Source: Dehalococcoidia bacterium (lineage in GTDB: Bacteria > Chloroflexota > Dehalococcoidia > UBA2979). From it: DNA of 64,000 bases. Both the position numbers and the translations under genes were made by a program. The stretch spans positions 160,001 through 224,000 of the forward strand of contig OZ219871.1 in assembly GCA_964291495.2 (NCBI GenBank). The letters run 5' to 3'. Below the pieces are notes generated by a model that made no database searches, was not told the DNA's origin, and saw nothing but the letters and a program-made list of their open reading frames with translations. Numbering within the stretch: position 1 is the stretch's first letter; each line of letters opens with the position of its first letter. This document shows, piece by piece, positions 6,771 through 20,508 of this stretch.

Positions 6771-7928
6771 CTACGGCGCCTCGCGGCCGAGCAGGACCAC
6801 GTCGGTGAAGAGCGCGCCCGCGCCGCCGTTGGTGCACATTGCGACCTCGGCGCCCTCGACCTGGCGGTTGCCCGCCTCGCCGCGCAGTTGCTTGGTGCCG
6901 GAGATCACTTTCTGCAGCAGCTGGGCCGTGCCGGGGTGGGCGAACGACATCGTGCCGCCGTCGGTGCAGACCGGGAACTCGCCGCCGACGCGGATGCGGC
7001 CGTCCATCACGAACGGGCCGCCCTCGCCGGGACCGCAGAAGCCATAGGTCTCGAACTGGCGGATGATCTCGAACGAGAACGGGTCGTAGAACTCGCACAC
7101 GTCGATGTCGGACGGCCCGAGGCCGCAGGCCTCGAACGCCTGCCTCGATGAGTACGACCCGACATCGCCCGTGACGTGCCAGAGCGGCCCGGCCACGTAG
7201 GCCTGCCCGCGCGAGTCGAGCCCGCCGCCGAGGATGTGGATCGGCGTGACGTCGAGGTCGCGCGCGCGCTCGGCGGTGGTGAGCACCATCGCGGCGCCGC
7301 CCTCGCTGGTCATCGCGCAGTCGAGCAGGTGGAACGGGTCGGCGATCATCGCCGAGTTGAGCACGTCGTCGGGCGTGATCACGCGTCCCGTGTAGACCGC
7401 GTCCGGGTTCATCCCGCCGTGCGTGCGGATCGCCGAGGCGACCTCGGCGAGGTGTTCGGGCTTCGTGTCGTACATGTGCATGTGGCGCTGGGCGATCAGC
7501 GCGAACTCGGCGGCGGTGTAGAGGCCGAAGCACTCGACGAACTCGTTCGATGGCCGCGTCCAGGGCGCGGTCGAAGCGCGCTCCGTGTAGGCGCCGGCCT
7601 GGCCGTTGCCGACGACGACGGTGTTGGCGTACCCGGCGGCGATGGCGGCGGCCGCCTGCAGTACCGCGGGGATGCCCATGTTCGCGACGCCCACCCACGT
7701 CGCCCGCCCGCCGAGCTGGTGCACCCACTGGCGCTGCCCGCCGCCACCGCCGGTGCCGGTGCTGACGTTGACGCCGTCGATGTCGGAGACCTGGAGGCCG
7801 GCGTCGGCGATCGCGCCCTTCACCGCGTCGAGGGTGATCGAGAAGGAGCTGTGCTCGTTGAGGTAACGCGACTGCACCGTGTTGTACGCGCCGACGATCA
7901 CGACGTCATGCAGATCCTTGCGCGGCAT
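6771..7928 (-). CDS. thiolase-family protein, SCP-x/lipid-transfer (non-canonical) type
   Basis: IADPFHLLDCAMTSEGGAA, FYDPFS, TDGGTMSFAHPG, QLRGEAGNRQV; no canonical CxSG nucleophile. Confidence 0.88.
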   Translation of the reverse strand: MPRKDLHDVVIVGAYNTVQSRYLNEHSSFSITLDAVKGAIADAGLQVSDIDGVNVSTGTGGGGGQRQWVHQLGGRATWVGVANMGIPAVLQAAAAIAAGYANTVVVGNGQAGAYTERASTAPWTRPSNEFVECFGLYTAAEFALIAQRHMHMYDTKPEHLAEVASAIRTHGGMNPDAVYTGRVITPDDVLNSAMIADPFHLLDCAMTSEGGAAMVLTTAERARDLDVTPIHILGGGLDSRGQAYVAGPLWHVTGDVGSYSSRQAFEACGLGPSDIDVCEFYDPFSFEIIRQFETYGFCGPGEGGPFVMDGRIRVGGEFPVCTDGGTMSFAHPGTAQLLQKVISGTKQLRGEAGNRQVEGAEVAMCTNGGAGALFTDVVLLGREAP

Positions 7929-11184: not shown

Positions 11185-12399
11185 CTACGCCGGGTGCGCC
11201 GCCTCGAGCATGTGGCCGTGGCGGCCGAGGTACTCGCGCACCGCAAGCAGCGCCGCGATGCCGTCGCCGGTCGCCGATCCGAGCTGCTTGGTCGAGCCGG
11301 CCCGCACGTCGCCGGCGACGTAGACGCCCTCGAGCGAGGTCGCGAAGCCCTCGCTGGCGACGAAGCCCCACTCGTCCAGTTCCACCGCCCCTCGCAGGAA
11401 CTCCGTGTTCGGCGTCAGCCCGATGAAGACGAAGACCCCTGCCGGGCTCCATGAGAGGTCCTCGCCGCTCTCGCTGTCGTGCGCGCGGACCTCCTGCAGG
11501 CGACCGCCCCGCCCGAGGAGCTCGACCACCTCGGTGCTCGTGTGGACCTCGATCGCCGGATGGCCGCGCACCTTGTCCCGCAGCAGCTGCGAGCCCTTGA
11601 GCTCCGGGTTGCGCTCCAGGATGCGCACGCGCTCGGCGAAGTTCGTGAGGAACAGCCCTTCCTCGAGGCCGGAGTTGCCGCCGCCGATCACCAGCAGTTC
11701 CTCCGAGCCGCGGTAGAACGGCCCGTCGCAGGTCGCGCAGAAGTGCACGCCCGCGCCGATCAGCCCGTCCTCGCCGGGAACCTCCAGGCGCCGGTAGGAG
11801 GAGCCCGTGGCGATCAAGGCCGCGTGGGCGCTGATCTCCTGCCCGGAGCTGAGCGTCAGCGAGACGTCGCCCTCCTGTTCGTCGGCGCGCAGTGCGGTGA
11901 CGGACACCGCCTCCAGCATCTCGACGCCGTAGCGCCGGGCCTGCCGCACGAAGCGGTCGGCCAGCTCGCCGCCCTCGATGCCGTCAGGGAAGCCCGGGTA
12001 GTTGTCGACGCGCTCGGTCACGCCGGCCTGCCCGCCGAGCGAGCCGCCGTCGACGATGATCGCGTCGATGCCCTCGCGCGCCGCGTAGATGCCGGCCGCG
12101 AGTCCGGCCGGACCGCCCCCGATGATCGCGAGGTCGTAGAAGGCGCGCTCGGCCTCGATGTTGAGGCCGAGCTTGCGCGCCAGCTCCTCGTTCGAGGGCT
12201 CCAGCAGGGAGCTGCCGTCCGGGAAGATGATCGTCGGGATCGTGCGGCCGCCGTTCTGCAGCTCCTCGACGAAGCGCAAGCCCTCGGCGTCCGTGTCGAT
12301 GTCGATCCAGTCGTACTCGACGCGGTGCTCGCCGAGGAACTTCTTGGAGCGCCGGCAATCCGGGCACCACGGGGCTCCGTAGACCTGTATCTCCGCCAT
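11185..12399 (-). CDS. trxB: thioredoxin reductase with fused N-terminal glutaredoxin/NrdH-like domain
   Basis: N-terminal WCPDC and TIP motifs; then GGGPAG, NYPGF, CATCDG, GGGNSG, AGDV. Confidence 0.9.
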   Translation of the reverse strand: MAEIQVYGAPWCPDCRRSKKFLGEHRVEYDWIDIDTDAEGLRFVEELQNGGRTIPTIIFPDGSSLLEPSNEELARKLGLNIEAERAFYDLAIIGGGPAGLAAGIYAAREGIDAIIVDGGSLGGQAGVTERVDNYPGFPDGIEGGELADRFVRQARRYGVEMLEAVSVTALRADEQEGDVSLTLSSGQEISAHAALIATGSSYRRLEVPGEDGLIGAGVHFCATCDGPFYRGSEELLVIGGGNSGLEEGLFLTNFAERVRILERNPELKGSQLLRDKVRGHPAIEVHTSTEVVELLGRGGRLQEVRAHDSESGEDLSWSPAGVFVFIGLTPNTEFLRGAVELDEWGFVASEGFATSLEGVYVAGDVRAGSTKQLGSATGDGIAALLAVREYLGRHGHMLEAAHPA

Positions 12400-12522
12400 G
12401 GCGCTCTCCTTTCGGACATCGTCCGCACCGGCCGCGAAGGCCTCGATAGAATGATCCCAGAAGCGCGGCGCTCGCGCCCCCGCATCGGGGAGCCTGTCGC
12501 AGCAGCGCGTGCGGGAGGTCGC

Positions 12523-13122
12523 ATGGCGCAGCCCCAGCGCAGCGAGGGAACAGCGCGGCTCCTCGCGCTCTGCGGCGCGCTGCTGGCGCTGCTGCTCCTC
12601 GCCTGCACCACCCCGACCGAGGAGCCGGCCGAGGCGACCGCGACGCCGTCGGACGCCGGCTCCGGCGTCACGACCGCCACGCCGCCACGGACCGCCTCCC
12701 CAACCCCCGACGAGCTGACCGCCGAGGAGGCGGTGGCGGCGTGGGGCCGCCAGGTCTGCGCCGCAGCCAGCGCCTTCACCGTCGACTTCCTTCGCAGCGG
12801 CGACTCGCAGGATCCGAGCGAGCTGGGTCTGGAGGCGCGCAAGGAGCGCGCTGCGGCGATGTTCCCCGTGCAGTACGACGCCGTGCGCAGGGCCGCGAAC
12901 ATCCTCGAGGCAATCGATCCGCCGCAGCGCACATCCGAGCTGCACCGCCTGCTGCTGACGACCTACCGCGATCTTGAGGCGGCGCTGCGGGAGCAGGAAG
13001 AGATCATCGCCGAGGCGACCACCGGCGAGGAGATCGCCGACAGCAACCTTCCGGTAGACGAGCTGATCAGCCTCGCCTTCCGCCAGGCCTCGCTGCTCGC
13101 CGACGGCGGCTACTGCGAGTAG
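12523..13122 (+). CDS. hypothetical lipoprotein
   Basis: GGAGG RBS, signal peptide with LLAC lipobox, Pro/Thr linker, helical domain. Confidence 0.7.
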   Translation: MAQPQRSEGTARLLALCGALLALLLLACTTPTEEPAEATATPSDAGSGVTTATPPRTASPTPDELTAEEAVAAWGRQVCAAASAFTVDFLRSGDSQDPSELGLEARKERAAAMFPVQYDAVRRAANILEAIDPPQRTSELHRLLLTTYRDLEAALREQEEIIAEATTGEEIADSNLPVDELISLAFRQASLLADGGYCE

Positions 13123-13158
13123 CGCGCGCCTGACCGCCAGCACCCGGCCCGCAACGCA

Positions 13159-13210
13159 TTGCATCGGCAGGGCGACGCGTGTACCATACTTTGCATTACA
13201 AACTAGTTTG
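13159..13210 (+). promoter_or_regulatory. sigma70-type promoter with adjacent palindromic operator
   Basis: TTGCAT(13159)-17 bp-TACCAT(13182); then ACTTTG-n5-CAAACT and the perfect palindrome CAAACTAGTTTG (13199-13210). Confidence 0.6.
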
Positions 13211-13239
13211 CACAGCAGTAGCGAGGTGGGGGCACCAAC

Positions 13240-13872
13240 ATGGAGCGAACGGGCGACGAGGCACGACTCAGCCCCGAGGACGGCTGGCGCGCGATCCAGA
13301 AGACGGTGGACGAGACGCACAGTGCGATGTACGTCGCCGGCACGGCGACGATCCTGCTGCTCTGGGGCGTGATCGTCTCGCTCGGCTACCTCGCGGAGTA
13401 CGCGCTCGACACCGCAGCCACCGACTTCCGCGACGACAACCCCTGGATCAGCGCGCCGCTCTGGTTCGGCCTCGTGGGGGCGGGGATGGCGGGAAGCGCG
13501 ATCGTCGGGAGCCGTGCGGGAAGGGTGCACGCCGCCGGTGATGCGATGCGCAGCGCCGGCATCCGCGTCTTCCTCTTCTGGCTCGCGGTGGCGCTTGCCG
13601 CGTTCCTCGTCCCGGCGGCAGCAGGCCTGTGGACCGCCGACGAAGACCCGGCGAACATCGTGCGCGCCGCGATCGGCATCGTGGCGCTCGGTCACGTGCT
13701 GTTCGGCATCATGCACCGCCCGCTGATCGCGGCGGTGGGCGTGGGCATCGCCACCGCGTTCTACGTCCCGAGCTACCTCGCGGGCGACGCCGCGCTGGCG
13801 GTGGCGGCAGCGTCCACGCTCCTCGTCGTCGCGGGCGCCTACGCGTGGATCCGCCGCAGCGGGGTGCTGTGA
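13240..13872 (+). CDS. hypothetical membrane protein (about 7 TM)
   Basis: Multiple hydrophobic segments; GTGA-coupled to the downstream wHTH regulator. Confidence 0.75.
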   Translation: MERTGDEARLSPEDGWRAIQKTVDETHSAMYVAGTATILLLWGVIVSLGYLAEYALDTAATDFRDDNPWISAPLWFGLVGAGMAGSAIVGSRAGRVHAAGDAMRSAGIRVFLFWLAVALAAFLVPAAAGLWTADEDPANIVRAAIGIVALGHVLFGIMHRPLIAAVGVGIATAFYVPSYLAGDAALAVAAASTLLVVAGAYAWIRRSGVL

Positions 13873-14202: not shown

Positions 14203-15078
14203 CTACCCGAGCAGGTCGGCGGGGTTCTCCCGCACCATCCGCCCCACGTCCGAGGCGGGGTAGCCGGCGTCGAGGAAGTGCTCGATCCAGCGGCCGAAGC
14301 CGACGGGCGGCTCGGGGTTCCGGGCTTGGCCGAAGTCGGTCGAGAGGATGACGCGCTCCGGGCCGACGGCGCGGACCTGCGACTCGATCAGCTCCCACTG
14401 CACCTGGCCGTCCTCGTGGCTCGTCGCCGTCGCCACCTGCTCCACGTAGGCCCCGAGGCCTGCCAGCTCCTGTTGCACCTCGAGCTCGATGTAGAAGGAG
14501 CCATGCGTCACGACCGTGCGGATCCCGCGGCGGCGTGACTCGCGCCCGAGGACGGCGGTCTCGGGCGACGAGAGGTGGCCGGTCGCGAGCACCGCGTCGT
14601 ACTCGCCGATCAGGTCGAGGATCGCCATCACCTCGTGACGGAGGTCGCCCATCTCGTCGAGGATGGTGATGCCGGGGCCGGGGCTGTGGCGGCCGCCGGG
14701 GCGCTCGTCGCGCCAGGCCTGCGCGTCGAAGGTGGGCATCCACACCACCGTCGTGCCGATGCGCATCGCAACGCTGACGGCCTCCATGTTGAGCCCGCCG
14801 ACGCAGTGGTCGAGCGCGATGCCGCCGTAGACGCGGATGCTCTCGTTCTGCCGGTCGAGCAGCCAGGCGAGCGGCTGGGTGTTGTACTCGTGGCTCTTGA
14901 GCACGATGCCGCCCATGCCCGCCTCGACGGCGCGTTCGACGAGCGCGGCGGCGTCCATCCGCCGGTCCGCGTACGGATCGGGCGAGGCATGCACGTGCAC
15001 GTCGATCGCGCCTCGCAGCAGCTCGCGCGCGTCGTCGCGTACATCGGCGAGCGTGGCGTCGGGGTTGAACATCGCCAT
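14203..15078 (-). CDS. DUF6282-family amidohydrolase-fold protein
   Basis: GAIDVHVHASPD, VLKSH, VWMPT, LATGHLS, VTH, LSTDFGQ. Confidence 0.8.
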   Translation of the reverse strand: MAMFNPDATLADVRDDARELLRGAIDVHVHASPDPYADRRMDAAALVERAVEAGMGGIVLKSHEYNTQPLAWLLDRQNESIRVYGGIALDHCVGGLNMEAVSVAMRIGTTVVWMPTFDAQAWRDERPGGRHSPGPGITILDEMGDLRHEVMAILDLIGEYDAVLATGHLSSPETAVLGRESRRRGIRTVVTHGSFYIELEVQQELAGLGAYVEQVATATSHEDGQVQWELIESQVRAVGPERVILSTDFGQARNPEPPVGFGRWIEHFLDAGYPASDVGRMVRENPADLLG

Positions 15079-15110
15079 GCGGCCGCTCCTTCCCTCCGTG
15101 GAGAGTCCGG

Positions 15111-15596
15111 CTAGTCCGCGAGCAGCTTGGTGTGGTCCCAGGAGGAGACCTTGCCCGGCCGGATGCGCACGGCGATGCGCTTCGGCACGGCGCGGCGGCG
15201 GTCGGGGCTCGCCTGCGCGCCCGCGCGTGCGGTGTCGCCGCCCGGTCCCTCGTTGTAGTACTTCGCTCCGATCAGCCGCATCACGCTGCGCGTCACCTCG
15301 ACATCGTCGAGGAGCTCCGCCTCGCCCTCGATCATCACGCCGCGCAGCTCGTCGTAGACGGTGCCGTCCTCGATCAGCATCGTGACGCGCGGGTCGCGCT
15401 CGAGGTTGCGGACCTTCTGCGAGGAGCGGTAGGTCGTGAAGACGACGCAGCCCTCTTCGTCGACGCAGAACCACATCGGCACCAGGTGCGGGCGGCCGTC
15501 CGGGCCGACGCTCGCGACCTGCAGCGTGTGGGCCGTCTCGAGGAACTCGTGCAGCTCCCCATCGCTCATGCGGATGCGATCGCGCAGGTTCGGCAC
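15111..15596 (-). CDS. PPOX-class (pyridoxamine 5'-phosphate oxidase-like) probable F420-dependent oxidoreductase
   Basis: R..IRMS..E...FL, GRPHLVPMWF, SQKVRNLERDPR, G..YDELRGV, SWDHTKL. Confidence 0.88.
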   Translation of the reverse strand: MPNLRDRIRMSDGELHEFLETAHTLQVASVGPDGRPHLVPMWFCVDEEGCVVFTTYRSSQKVRNLERDPRVTMLIEDGTVYDELRGVMIEGEAELLDDVEVTRSVMRLIGAKYYNEGPGGDTARAGAQASPDRRRAVPKRIAVRIRPGKVSSWDHTKLLAD

Positions 15597-16658: not shown

Positions 16659-17780
16659 TCAGCCGCGGAGATCCTCGACGCTGCCGACGGGGCGGCCGAA
16701 GCGATCGGCGATCACTGTCGTGACCGGCTGCGTCCGCTGCCCGAAGGTCGGCAGCCACGAGGAGTGCTTGCCGGGCCCACCGGCGACGAACAAGTGCAGC
16801 CGCTCCGGCTCGTTGACGATCGGCAGCAGTGCGTCCGGCGGGAACGGCTCAATCCCCGTCTCCGGCTCGATGCGCACGTTGACGGACTCGAGGAACTCGG
16901 GCGAGAGCTTCGCCGCGGGGTAACGGGCGTGCTCGAAGACGTACTGCTGGACGCCCTCGCGGGTCCAGCCCTCGTCGGCGATCGTCGCGGCGTGCTCGGG
17001 GCCGAGCGCTAGCAGCGGCTCGCCGCGGCTGAGGATATTGTTGCTTCCCGCCTGCCCGAGGGCGCCGGCGACGGTCTGGAGGACGCCGAGCGCGGTGTTG
17101 CTGCCGTGCTCCTGGATGTTGTGCGGGCCCTCGCTGGCCGCGACGGTGACCGCGCTGTCTTCCGGCTCGAAGCCGCGCGTGGTGTGGAACGGCGGCCAGG
17201 GGCTGGCCTCCTCGTTCTCGGCGAGGCAGAGCGCGAACTTTGCCGGCGTGCCCTGCGTGGCGCGGTCGCCGTGGCCGGGCGAGGCGCCGGCGATGTTGAG
17301 CAGCAGCAGCCGGATCGCGCGCCCGATCGTCGCGTTCGCGCGGAAGCCCGGGCCGTAGCAGCCCGGCCCGCCGTGCACCCCCAGCTCACGGCCGATCGGC
17401 CCGTTCACGAGCACCAGCACCGCGCAGGGGTGCGTGGTCGCGTTGATGCCGCTGAGGTTGAACTGCGGCTGCGCGATGCCCTGCACCGCCGCGAGCAGCA
17501 CGGGCAGCGCGCGCGGCTCGCAGCCCGCGAGGACGGCGTTGATCGCGACCGCCTCGACGGTCGCCACGCCACGCCGCGGCGGCAGCACGCCCAGCACTTC
17601 GCGCCGGTCGCGGTCGGTGTAGGCGAGCATCGCCTCGACGCGCTCCTCGGTGGGCGGGATGACGGGCAGGCCGTCCGACCAGCCGCGTTCGGCGAACGCG
17701 TCGTGCAGCTCGCCGGGATCGGCGGGCAGATCGACCAGCGCCGCGGCGTCGCCGAAGCGGGCGGAGCCGCCCGACGTCAT
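16659..17780 (-). CDS. conserved uncharacterised partner of UGSC-family proteins
   Basis: GWSDGLPVIPPTEERVEAML, ATVE.VAINAV.AGC, NGPI, RANATIGRAIRL, G.P.KF..C.AENEE.SPW; ATGA-coupled to the upstream gene. Confidence 0.75.
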   Translation of the reverse strand: MTSGGSARFGDAAALVDLPADPGELHDAFAERGWSDGLPVIPPTEERVEAMLAYTDRDRREVLGVLPPRRGVATVEAVAINAVLAGCEPRALPVLLAAVQGIAQPQFNLSGINATTHPCAVLVLVNGPIGRELGVHGGPGCYGPGFRANATIGRAIRLLLLNIAGASPGHGDRATQGTPAKFALCLAENEEASPWPPFHTTRGFEPEDSAVTVAASEGPHNIQEHGSNTALGVLQTVAGALGQAGSNNILSRGEPLLALGPEHAATIADEGWTREGVQQYVFEHARYPAAKLSPEFLESVNVRIEPETGIEPFPPDALLPIVNEPERLHLFVAGGPGKHSSWLPTFGQRTQPVTTVIADRFGRPVGSVEDLRG

Positions 17781-18334
17781 CGGTCGCCGCCGGCGATCGG
17801 CACGGGCTCGGCCGCGAGCGACGCCAGCAGGTCCGGGATGGAGTCGCGGGCCTTCTCGGCGACGGCGTCTTCCCGGATGCCGCCGATCGGGTGCGGGACC
17901 ACGATGTAGCGCAGGTCCGGCATGCCGCGCTGCTCGGCCTCGAGCTTGAACAGGCTGACGAATGCCTCGGTGGTGATGTTGACGGTGGGGATGCCCTGCC
18001 GCTCGAAGAGGATGGAGGCGTGGACACTCCACGCCGTGCAGGAGCCTCAGTCGCTCGATCCGACCAGGGCGAAGTCGGCTCCCTCCACGAGCTTGCGCTC
18101 GTTGCTCTTCGTCGGCGGGCCGGCGCTCGGCTTGCCGATCGTCGTCAGCTCGCCGAGCTCGAAGTGCTCGCGCAAGCCCTCGATCATCTGCCGCATCAGC
18201 AGCCCGGCGTTGGCCTTGCGGTTCTCGACGATGCCGGGCCGCATGCCGTCGAGCGAGGCGGGCAGCGGCGCGAGCGGGTACTGCTCGACGGGCGCGTGGC
18301 CGGTGGGGTCGTAGACCCGGATGGTGTCGCTCAT
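17777..18334 (-). CDS. UGSC-family selenoprotein (Sec at UGA 18047-18049; about 185 aa with readthrough)
   Basis: ...ALVGSSD-UGA-GSCTAWSVHASILFERQGIPTV...TEAF...VVPHPIGG...; the frame stays open to a stop overlapping the next ATG; SECIS-like hairpin downstream. Confidence 0.92.
18017..18035 (-). promoter_or_regulatory. bacterial SECIS-like hairpin of the UGSC gene
   Basis: mRNA UGA-11 nt-GGCGUGGA-GUG-UCCACGCC, a perfect 8-bp stem with G first in the loop. Confidence 0.8.
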
Positions 18335-18363
18335 GGCGGTCCTCCGTAGGCGCGCGTTCGGGA

Positions 18364-18615
18364 TCAGACGCGCGAGTAGATCAGCTCCTTGAGTTCCTCG
18401 ATCTCCGGGAAGCGCCCGCTCTGCATCTTGCTGAAGACCAGTTCGCCGTTCACGGACCACTCGAAGCAGCCGCCGTCGCCGGTGCGCATCTCCAGCTTTC
18501 GGACATCGTCCTGGATGTCGTACATGATCTCGCCGATCATCCACTGCGCGCGGGCGAGGTAGCTGCAGGGCACGCAGTACTCGACCGTGATCTCGACTCC
18601 CTGCTCATCGCTCAT
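18364..18615 (-). CDS. Rdx (SelT/SelW/SelH-like) family protein, CxxC form
   Basis: ITVEYCVPCSY..RA, G.GG.FE..VNGELVFSK...GRFPE; TAGAAT and GGAGG upstream. Confidence 0.9.
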   Translation of the reverse strand: MSDEQGVEITVEYCVPCSYLARAQWMIGEIMYDIQDDVRKLEMRTGDGGCFEWSVNGELVFSKMQSGRFPEIEELKELIYSRV

Positions 18616-18842
18616 TGGGCCGCCTCCCTCGGTTCCCGATTCTAGCGCCGCCACCCCGCCGGATCGCACCCGCGCCAGCCGATTCCAGCGTCGGCCCGGT
18701 TTTTTGGCCGTTATGTAGCGTTGGAGTGAAGTCAAGGGTTCGCTCGCCTGCTCGCGGACTGCTAGATTCGTTGAAGACGCGCGTCACGATGCCCATACGT
18801 CGTGTTCGCGAGCCTGCCACACCCGAGCGGGAGGAGTTGCCG

Positions 18843-20009
18843 ATGAGCCTGCGCGGAGCGGCCTCAATCATCGGAATCGGCGAATTGAAGCCGGAACGGC
18901 GCAAGCCCGGACGCACCGGCCCCGGCCTGGCGCAGGAGGCGGCTCGCCTCTGCATCGAGGACTCCGGCCTGCTCAAGGAGCAGGTGGACGGGCTGATCAC
19001 GGAGATCCCGTTCCTCAATACCTGTGAGTTCGCCGAGACACTCGGCATCCAGCCGACCTGGGCGCACGGAGTGAACATGATGGGCTCGTCCGGCCCCACG
19101 TCGGTCGCCATCGCGGCGATGGCGGTCAGAGCCGGGCTCGCCAACAACATCCTCTGCCTGGTCACCTCCGGCGAGGTCGGGGGCTTCGGAGGCGGCGGTG
19201 GCGGCGCCATCGGCGGCCAGTTCCCGCAGTTCGCCGGCCCGTTCGGGCCGGGCCCCGGCGCGAACTTCTGGTACGCGCTGGTCGCCAACCGCTACAAGCA
19301 CGAGTTCGGACTCACCGACGAGGAGCGCGTCGCGATCGCGGTGCAGCAGCGCGAGAACGCGCAGGCCAACCCGGATGCGGCTTTCTACGGCACCCCGGCG
19401 ACCACCGACGACGTGCTGAACTCGCGCATGGTCGCGAACCCGCTGACCCTGCTTGAGTGCGTGATGCCCACGCTCGGCGCGGCGGCCCTGATGGTGAGCC
19501 GCCCCGAGGCCGTCGAGTCCTCCCCGCACGACCCGGTCTACATCCTCGGCGTCGGTCACTCGATGGACCGCGGTGTGCCGGGCATCACCTACGTGGACCG
19601 CATGACGAAGTCCCCGGTCGAGGTCTCCGCCCGCGCGGCCTACAAGATGGCCGGCGTCGGTCCGCAGGACATGGACATGGCCTCGCTCTACGACTGCTAC
19701 ACGATCACGGTGATCATCGAGTTCGAGGACGCCGGCTTCGCCCCGAAGGGCGAGGGCGGCACCTACTTCGCGAACGAGGACGTCACCTACAAGAGCAAGG
19801 GCATTGCCGTGAACACGCACGGCGGCCAGCTCTCCTTCGGCCAGCCCGGCACCGCCGGCGGCATGTCGCACGCCACCGAGGCGGTGCGCCAGCTGATGGG
19901 CCGCGGCGAGGCGCGCCAGAAGGAGCAGATGGACTACTGCTTCGTCAACGGCTGAGGCGGCGGACTGAGCGTGATGTGCTCACTGGTCCTCGGGAAGGAC
20001 CAAGGCTAG
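18843..20009 (+). CDS. SCP-x/Ltp2-type thiolase-family protein with in-frame UGA at 19953-19955 (candidate selenoprotein)
   Basis: A.IIGIGE, SRMVANPL.LLEC, LYDCYT, NTHGGQLSFGQPG, EAVRQLMG...RQ; after NG-UGA the frame continues GGGLSVMCSLVLGKDQG-TAG, matching the family's terminal beta strand. Family call is high confidence; the Sec call is moderate. Confidence 0.8.
19962..19989 (+). promoter_or_regulatory. SECIS-like hairpin downstream of the thiolase UGA
   Basis: UGA-ggcggc-GGAC-UGAGCG-ugaug-UGCUCA-cug-GUCC; apical loop starts 17 nt after UGA with G second. Confidence 0.6.
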
Positions 20010-20085
20010 CCACCTCGAACCGAAGCACCGGAGCCCGCTGCCTCGCGGCAGTGGGCGACGGGAGCAGCAGAGGGGGATGGGAACG

Positions 20086-20508
20086 ATGGCCGACGAAGGC
20101 CCAAAGCGGCCCGTACCGCAGGCGAACGCACTGACCGAGCCCTTCTGGGAGGCGACGAGGGAGGAGCGGCTCACGGTCCAGCGCTGCAACGCCTGCAGCC
20201 GGCTGTTCTGGTACCCGCGCGAGTTCTGCCCGCTCCCGCACTGCTTCTCCAACGACTACGAGTGGGTGGAGGTGAGCGGCAAGGGACGGCTGCACACCTT
20301 CACGATCATCGCCCAGGCCCAGGACGCCTGGTTCCAGGAGCGCGTGCCCTACATCTTCGGCGTGATCCAGCTCGACGAGGGCCTGCGCATGATGGGCAAC
20401 GTCGACATCCCGGTCGAAGAGGCCGTCTGCGACCTGCCCGTCGAGGTCTACTTCGAGAAGATCGACGACGAGTGGACGCTGCCGCAGTGGAGGCCGATCG
20501 CCTCGTAG
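20086..20508 (+). CDS. Zn-ribbon/OB-fold (DUF35, ChsH2-like) acyl-CoA-binding partner of thiolase
   Basis: PFWEA....L..QRCNAC....YPR..CPLPHC, W...SGKG.L.TFT, PY....IQLDEG.RM. Confidence 0.92.
   Translation: MADEGPKRPVPQANALTEPFWEATREERLTVQRCNACSRLFWYPREFCPLPHCFSNDYEWVEVSGKGRLHTFTIIAQAQDAWFQERVPYIFGVIQLDEGLRMMGNVDIPVEEAVCDLPVEVYFEKIDDEWTLPQWRPIAS

Follow-up and report, generated by a model that had tools for sequence, protein, structure and literature searches.

A thiolase-fold gene of a Dehalococcoidia bacterium that very probably encodes selenocysteine at an in-frame UGA

We analysed a window of 64,000 nucleotides from a Dehalococcoidia bacterium (contig OZ219871.1, positions 160,001 to 224,000 of the forward strand; all positions below are those of the window) and, within it, a gene at 18843-20009 that is interrupted by an in-frame UGA. 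Judged from comparison with its relatives, this is very probably a genuine selenocysteine (Sec)-decoding gene of the Sal-type thiolase fold. The most likely account is ordinary bacterial Sec decoding in a new enzyme class, with an unusual Sec/Asn instead of Sec/Cys relation. The UGA at 19953-19955 would be decoded as Sec via the SelA, SelB, SelD and tRNA-Sec of the genome, and a hairpin resembling a Sec insertion sequence (SECIS), starting 10-12 nt past the UGA, would direct the insertion. The three rival explanations weighed below are improbable even when taken together. The parts of the gene and of its hairpin are as follows.

18843-19952, plus strand: thiolase-fold (Sal-type) gene, codons 1-370, with ATG at 18843
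19953-19955, plus strand: in-frame UGA, taken as Sec371, first residue of U-G-G
19956-20009, plus strand: 17 codons, GGGLSVMCSLVLGKDQG, that make up the final beta-strand; stop codon TAG at 20007-20009
19962-19989, plus strand: SECIS-like hairpin, GGAC/UGAGCG/ugaug/UGCUCA/cug/GUCC
19966-19971 with 19977-19982, plus strand: genus-local core stem, loop UGAUG at 19972-19976, flanks GGAC/GUCC
19968-19973 with 19979-19984, plus strand: family-wide stem register

As the initial annotation had pointed out, the open reading frame (ORF) called here halts at the TGA while the frame itself runs on through GGGLSVMCSLVLGKDQG to the TAG. The product is 370 residues long if it ends at the UGA and 388 if read through, and the residues around the UGA codon read ...FVNG-U-GGGLSVMCSLVLGK. 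Directly 5’ of the ATG at 18843, on the plus strand, lies GGGAGGAG. The Pfam profile Thiolase_C_1 matches residues 251-385 of the read-through protein up to its final position (144/144, E 2.1e-40), indicating that the extension after the UGA is homologous sequence. In an AlphaFold2 (AF2) model, DSSP assigns strands to residues 365-372 and 377-384; residue 371 closes the first of these, ahead of the GGG turn, and a stop at the UGA would cost the protein the second, its final conserved strand, as had been claimed. NCBIfam profiles matched the read-through protein only through generic thiolase and lipid-transfer families, every one under its cut-off, and none of these matches was a selenoprotein model.

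The read-through protein was searched against 61 genomes (the window’s own and 60 relatives) with stops passed and counted, and the codon aligned to residue 371 was located by tblastn in the fetched loci (L018-L058). Of the 47 gene copies aligned, 31 have TGA in this column, and these 31 represent 22 Dehalococcoidia genomes in 12 genera and 4 families. Matches with one internal TGA occur at 92-100%, 72-74%, 63%, 53-56% and 42-49% protein identity, and no internal stop other than the TGA was reported among the 31 TGA-form matches. The other 16 of the 47 copies have AAC (7), ACN (4), TCY (2), GTC (2), GCC (1) or CCG (1). Two additional TGA copies, beyond the 31, are found in genome G041, while in the window’s own genome (G000) 3 of 31 thiolase-like hits have TGA at this column, namely the window gene (C5:178843), C5:687274 and C5:1035229. 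The tabulation of the aligned codon, which the initial annotation had proposed as a check, thus finds the TGA kept in distant orthologues and paralogues. Over the 13 codons 3’ of the TGA, 18 distinct sequences give a mean entropy of 0.49, 0.44 and 1.19 at codon positions 1, 2 and 3, respectively, and the peptide GGxxSxMxxLVLG is conserved. This combination of third-position variation and a kept peptide argues that the ribosome reads past the TGA. In a phylum-wide sample of 401 genomes, only 9 had a match at E <= 1e-75, the TGA forms being confined to G000 and G041, and no spread of the TGA form beyond the class was seen in that sample. A scan of genome contigs yielded 10 close loci only, all from Dehalococcoidia or from Chloroflexi metagenome-assembled genomes.

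The hairpin drawn in the initial annotation is present at 19962-19989, and the minimum free energy (MFE) fold of the window sequence contains its core, 19966-19982; the family-wide register, however, lies 2 nt further downstream, and the drawn hairpin is a genus-local variant of it. Alignment A1, made of 18 distinct TGA forms, shows a stem of 6 bp between columns 19-24 and 30-35; counted from the UGA, the stem begins at 12 nt and its 5-nt loop at 18 nt. In this stem, 88.9% of the cells pair, a share that falls to 15.7-50.9% if the 3’ side is displaced by 1-3 columns, and none of 500 shuffles matched the observed pairing or covariation score. The covariation check suggested earlier comes out positive, with compensatory double changes in three of the six stem pairs (UA 8/AU 6; GC 9/CG 6/AU 1; CG 11/UA 2). 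The encoded residues change with them (V/E/I/D with C/T/V/S and S/T), which selection on the RNA fold would lead one to expect. At the same positions, TGA forms have a mean of 4.95 pairs out of 6 (n = 20 distinct) and sense-codon homologues 2.78 (n = 23). The Ser codon in the 5’ arm is AGY in 19 of the 20 TGA forms versus 7 of the 23 sense forms. In the shifted stem of the window’s clade, the closing A is provided by the TCA Ser codon of the 3’ arm that the initial annotation had noticed. A second hairpin, of 7 bp, is seen in the MFE fold over the LVLGKD codons (19984-20002, plus strand), just 5’ of the stop, and inspection of alignment A1 revealed differing hairpins in that area in other subfamilies, L032 and L033 for example. 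It could extend the SECIS or couple translation with the downstream DUF35 gene.

The initial annotation took the host to be a Sec decoder, and selA, selB, selC and selD are indeed all found in the genome, which is 93.7% complete (tRNA-Sec 77 bits, selB 301.7 bits, selA 523.6 bits and selD 368.3 bits). ARAGORN reports 56 tRNAs, only one of which, tRNA-SeC, has the anticodon UCA; tRNA-Trp has CCA, and there is thus no sign of UGA reassignment. Two other selenoprotein genes of this genome can be set beside the gene at 18843. One is the UGSC gene that had been reported nearby, upstream on the minus strand, which proved real:

17780-18340, minus strand: UGSC-family selenoprotein gene, ...VGSSD-U-GSC..., with in-frame TGA at 18047-18049

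A 7-8 bp hairpin starts 11 nt past the UGA of this gene, and ORF calls with translation table 11 end it at the UGA. The other is selD, itself a selenoprotein gene in this genome (L059, G000:C5:1608812-1609747, minus strand; CGG-U-AGK, hairpin 11 nt past the UGA). In MFE folds, the stem starts 10 nt after the UGA in the 18843 gene and 11 nt after it in both the UGSC and the selD genes. Common to all three genes are the in-frame UGA, a hairpin that starts 10-11 nt after it, and dependence on selABCD. Of the 61 genomes, 50 have selA above cut-off, 21 of the 22 with TGA forms among them; the remaining TGA genome, G052 (71% complete), has a selB match of 312.8 bits and a tRNA-Sec match of 67.2 bits. 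Genomes G020, G035 and G051 have neither selA nor selB above cut-off, and their closest homologues carry Ser, Asn and Asn, respectively. This co-occurrence is consistent with Sec decoding but is not strong evidence, since selA is present in most of the relatives and kin are not independent.

We then compared the read-through product, referred to here as the 18843 protein, with proteins of solved structure. The residues in question are:

Gly81: at the thiolase nucleophile site
Tyr283-Asp-Cys285-Tyr: YDCY motif
Gln329 and Gln334: within GGQLSFGQPG

The MMGSSG, YDCYT and GQP variants singled out by the initial annotation are all found in the protein, and an hhalign comparison with a classical thiolase of the same genome agrees: the nucleophile Cys of that thiolase is matched by Gly81, its NEAF by YDCY and its GHP by GQP. 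By sequence, the best solved relative is 9myr_A (CtSal, E 5.9e-76); Foldseek with the AF2 model (mean predicted local distance difference test score, pLDDT, 93.2) also returned 9MYR as the best fold match (E 4.3e-45, TMq 0.92). This structure is that of CtSal, the bile-acid (steroid) side-chain aldolase of Comamonas testosteroni, with the DUF35 domain of Shy (PMC12329534; here and below, statements from cited papers refer to the passages drawn on). In the YDCY motif of CtSal, Tyr302 is the catalytic base and Cys304 the acid, C304A, C304S and C304H all being inactive; the thiolase nucleophile is replaced by Gly, Gln347 and Gln352 flank the Cys, and the oxyanion hole consists of Gln161 and the backbone amide of Gly391 (PMC12329534). 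With CtSal residues numbered as chain index minus 24, anchored on Tyr302, Tyr283 and Cys285 of the 18843 protein align with Tyr302 and Cys304; in the oxyanion hole, Gly391 is kept (Gly373) and Gln161 is replaced by Ala140. Because Tyr283-Asp-Cys285-Tyr, Gly81, Gln329/Gln334 and Gly373 are shared with CtSal, we assign the 18843 protein as a predicted Sal/SLP-type aldolase-like enzyme. A thiolase merely missing its nucleophile was considered and rejected on these same matches; of the earlier description as a non-canonical thiolase of the thiolase/aldolase fold, the fold stands and the class does not. A Gly-rich loop of the protein (residues 113-122), of low confidence in the AF2 model, would correspond by position to the disordered β4-α4 loop that shapes the substrate pocket of CtSal (PMC12329534).

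The likeness to CtSal thus extends over the Tyr and Cys of YDCY, the Gly at the nucleophile site, both Gln of GGQLSFGQ and the DUF35 partner. The two differ in that CtSal has Thr389 where the 18843 protein has the putative Sec. In their DUF35 partners they differ too: that of CtSal forms the C-terminal domain of Shy, a hydratase, and that of the 18843 protein is a free-standing protein of 143 residues. The TcLtp2-ChsH2(DUF35) aldolase (PDB 6OK1, E 2.2e-42) has in common a thiolase-fold aldolase with a DUF35 partner, but Ltp2 uses YDHF and Tyr344, while the 18843 protein has YDCY and the Tyr344 position is unconserved. MsTLP1 and TbSLP resemble it in having YSCF/YDCF for NEAF and NGG for CxG (PMC3406046, PMC12329534); at the site they have Asn and no Sec, as do the non-Sec relatives of the 18843 gene, which likewise read NGG. 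With classical thiolases (CxS, NEAF, GHP, CxGGGxG) the protein shares the fold and a chalcogen residue at the CxG site followed by Gly-Gly. Their nucleophile Cys, the Asn of NEAF and the His of GHP are all missing, and ordinary thiolytic chemistry is therefore unexpected. Known selenoprotein families, in the passages of the Global Ocean Sampling (GOS) paper drawn on, are mostly thiol oxidoreductase-like with Cys homologues; the 18843 gene, by contrast, has a C-C lyase-type fold and close homologues with Asn.

Sec371 is aligned to CtSal Thr389, two residues ahead of the oxyanion-hole Gly391. In a structure-based comparison of MsTLP1 with the Zoogloea thiolase, NGG is equivalent to CXG 378-380, the motif that provides the catalytic base through its Cys (PMC3406046). 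Since the non-Sec relatives read N-G-G there, U-G-G is predicted to correspond to the C-x-G of true thiolases, with Cys378 the counterpart of Sec371; in true thiolases the amide of the Gly in this motif makes the oxyanion hole. Both alignments uphold the earlier placement of Sec in the C-terminal loop equivalent to CxG. For SCP2-type thiolases, the catalytic Cys is said to come from an HDCF motif in place of CxG (PMC7682436). Of the 119 nearest database proteins in the tabulation, 46 finish exactly at ...VNG, the UGA having been called as a stop, 69 carry Asn, 2 Ser and 1 Lys, and one does not span the site. Few of the public entries bear a source name, and those that do are labelled “thiolase family protein” or “acetyl-CoA acetyltransferase”. 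All 46 entries ending at ...VNG have CxVNG, with Cys five residues from the end, and only one Asn form does. Met378 is present in all Sec forms of the loci, the position being Gln or Glu in most Asn forms; one reading is that Met378 would face Sec371 across the strand pairing of the beta-hairpin.

A number of observations weigh against this interpretation. Concerning the hairpin, two of the six family-register pairs are broken in the window’s own clade (C-A and U-U), the stem lying instead 2 nt upstream. At least 4 of the 6 pairs also form in 7 of 23 sense-codon homologues, which implies that the pairing is partly due to the codons of the conserved peptide. The energy of the window hairpin is that of shuffled sequence (z = 0.06, 104 of 200 shuffles folding at least as well) and was dropped as uninformative evidence; the significance of the hairpin derives from conservation rather than from energy. 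A scan of 17500-20300 with Rfam at E up to 10 gave five weak unrelated matches and no SECIS family. Concerning the residue, to our knowledge Sec/Cys pairs are the rule for selenoproteins. Here, Cys is found at the residue-371 column in none of 72 full-length close homologues and in only 2 of the 122 distant representatives, out of 150, that cover the site. The remainder of these have N (25), T (15), L (10), S (9), Q (9), V (7), F (7), A (6), Y (6), I (5), E (5), H (3), W (3), a gap (3), M (2), G (2), P (1), R (1) or D (1). The initial annotation’s own caveat, that many homologues carry residues other than Cys, was well founded, Asn accounting for 69 of the 72 close ones. As to register, global and low-mact hhalign runs, of low confidence, pair Cys366 and not residue 371 with thiolase Cys378, and the local hhalign against the classical thiolase ends at residue 357. 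The Cys366=Cys378 register was set aside in favour of the CtSal Gly391 register and of the published NGG = CxG alignment. Finally, Sec insertion is inferred from conservation, covariation and spacing, translation past the UGA is judged by the codon-position signature, and the convergence of side chains 285 and 371 near the substrate alpha-carbon would follow from homology.

Could the UGA be read through without Sec, by a near-cognate Trp or Cys tRNA, the hairpin serving only to stimulate readthrough? Hairpins can do so, the close relatives have no Cys at the column, and the column is highly variable in the wider superfamily, where three representatives have Trp. We nevertheless regard this as quite improbable. 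The genome has no suppressor tRNA besides tRNA-Sec, and its tRNA-Trp is CCA; Sec machinery is found in 22 of 22 TGA genomes, the relatives devoid of it having sense codons; not one close homologue has a Trp codon at the column; the hairpin spacing equals that of the UGSC and selD elements of the same genome; and in some copies a second TGA takes the place of a proven catalytic Cys (see below).

Slightly less probable still is that the UGA terminates translation at 370 residues, the 17 codons being kept as an RNA element for instance, or that Sec insertion and termination are in competition, forming a selenium-dependent switch. Sec decoding generally competes with termination, 46 of the 119 tabulated database entries are called in this way, and two hairpins fall within 54 nt after the UGA. 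Against this, the codons past the UGA vary at third positions while GGxxSxMxxLVLG is kept, a peptide that fits the closing part of the Pfam profile and the final beta-strand, and a terminated product would lose both the oxyanion-hole Gly and a core strand. The third rival is an artefact or gene decay, with an error in sequencing or assembly or a fresh nonsense mutation in a pseudogene. The sequence does come from a metagenome-assembled genome, but 31 TGA copies from 22 independently assembled genomes, with frames otherwise intact, reduce the chance of an artefact to almost nil. Conservation of the TGA in 22 genomes also excludes the alternative raised by the initial annotation itself, whether a nonsense change (TGG>TGA) or an error of sequencing.

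If the UGA does encode Sec, a Sal/SLP-type aldolase-like enzyme would act together with the DUF35 partner encoded downstream, presenting the selenol(ate) of Sec371 beside Cys285 at the substrate alpha-carbon. Sec371 may then help to pass protons to the acyl-CoA enolate and back while a C-C bond in a beta-hydroxyacyl-CoA, or in a related acyl-CoA, is broken, either alone or as a Se/S dyad, which could also close to a selenenylsulfide. We infer retro-aldol type chemistry on an acyl-CoA; the proton-transfer role of Sec371 beside Cys285, alone or as a dyad, is a tentative proposal that falls somewhat short of even chances. We consider it unlikely that Sec371, more than an accessory residue, rebuilds covalent or base catalysis at the ancestral CxG site of a scaffold stripped of all its thiolase cysteines. 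In one form of this, Sec would attack as nucleophile to give an acyl-selenoester intermediate, while the acid/base would be Cys285 (or Sec285). Were this true, it would be a selenium-dependent acyl-CoA enzyme cleaving or forming C-C bonds, derived from Asn, in which Cys is unable to substitute.

In three gene copies, a second TGA is found at the Cys of YDCY (giving YDUYT) beside NG-U-GG: two in tandem in genome G059 (L037, C107) and one in G041:

G041:C6:336594-337739: double-Sec paralogue (L080)

Every TGA in these copies has a hairpin of its own on its 3’ side, and after the YDUYT TGA the hairpin loop starts about 17 nt past the UGA. Since the C304 mutants of CtSal are inactive (PMC12329534), the putative Sec of YDUYT falls on a proven catalytic Cys, and at this second site Sec does pair with Cys in relatives. 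With these variants, Sec and Cys can be compared in acid-base catalysis as a natural experiment. Thiolase-fold proteins are dimers. In G041, the double-Sec copy stands in tandem with a copy having Ala285 and Asn371 (L078/L080, G041:C6:336594-339498), and this pair might be a catalytic and a non-catalytic subunit. Elsewhere, six genomes (G001, G004, G011, G012, G014 and G017; L022 and L024-L028, for example) have a second Sec copy about 1.9 kb upstream of the orthologue, 72-74% identical and with a DUF35 gene of its own. This copy is absent from the window’s genome, and in G009 just a fragment of it is left (L019 residues 233-315).

A tree of 42 sequences was computed with FastTree (LG+gamma, midpoint-rooted), leaving out the near-identical L019-L023 and L025-L027. 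The 19 tips with Sec371 all group within a single clade of 22, whose most recent common ancestor node is without a support value after rooting. The remaining three tips have Asn371, and each is sister to Sec forms with Shimodaira-Hasegawa-like support of 0.98-1.0. Cys285 is also lost, to Ala or Pro, in two of these three. Outgroup clades are C285/N371 and S285/S371. As rooted at its midpoint, the tree fits a single gain of the putative Sec in a YDCY/NGG background followed by several reversions to Asn, and it suggests that positions 285 and 371 may be functionally coupled.

No thiolase-family selenoprotein was found in the literature searched, although supplementary tables, which lay outside the search, could list one. 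The word “thiolase” occurs 0 times in the main texts, supplements excluded, of the selenoproteome papers PMC13188914, PMC12013277 and PMC2398784, and the selenocysteine passages of PMC5109826 name other proteins. If our interpretation is true, the thiolase superfamily and acyl-CoA C-C lyase chemistry join the selenocysteine-using enzymes. Searches built on Sec/Cys pairs would be expected to miss Sec/Asn families, and selenoproteomes may be undercounted. Public gene calls shorten these genes, of which several copies per genome are possible, three being present in the window’s genome. The hosts are marine and sponge-associated Dehalococcoidia with large catabolic paralogue families; a selenium need in their carbon catabolism, if true, would tie selenium supply to organic-matter turnover.

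Two other genes of the window lie close to the gene at 18843:

20077-20508, plus strand: DUF35 partner gene (zinc ribbon and OB fold), 143 residues, 67 nt downstream
18364-18735, minus strand: Rdx/SelT-SelW-SelH family gene with CVPC, the Cys form of CxxU, adjoining the UGSC gene

The DUF35 gene matches Pfam zf-ChsH2 (1.2e-12) and OB_ChsH2_C (1.8e-18). A DUF35 homologue is found in 41 of the 50 loci searched, mostly adjoining the thiolase-like gene and located upstream of it in L045-L047, L052 and L054. A link between the 18843 gene and the UGSC/Rdx genes was rejected: their adjacency is not conserved, being seen in only 4 of the 50 loci, all from close relatives. The paralogue at 6771-7928 (minus strand) ends in ...AMCTNGGAGALFTDVVLLGREAP, as had been claimed; it has YDPFSF and Gly at the Sec column and is only about 31% identical. 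The genome, of 3.08 Mb, has 31 thiolase-like hits in which the YDxY and NGG positions are highly varied, and the neighbours include genes for a luciferase-like monooxygenase, a short-chain dehydrogenase/reductase (SDR) and a cyclase. Together with the 31 paralogues, these neighbours suggest that acyl-CoAs of a complex alicyclic or branched kind are catabolised. Near the UGSC and Rdx genes, 11185-13716 (minus strand) encodes an 843-residue fusion of a glutaredoxin and a pyridine nucleotide-disulphide oxidoreductase, which together with DUF6282 (14203-15474) looks like a redox cluster.

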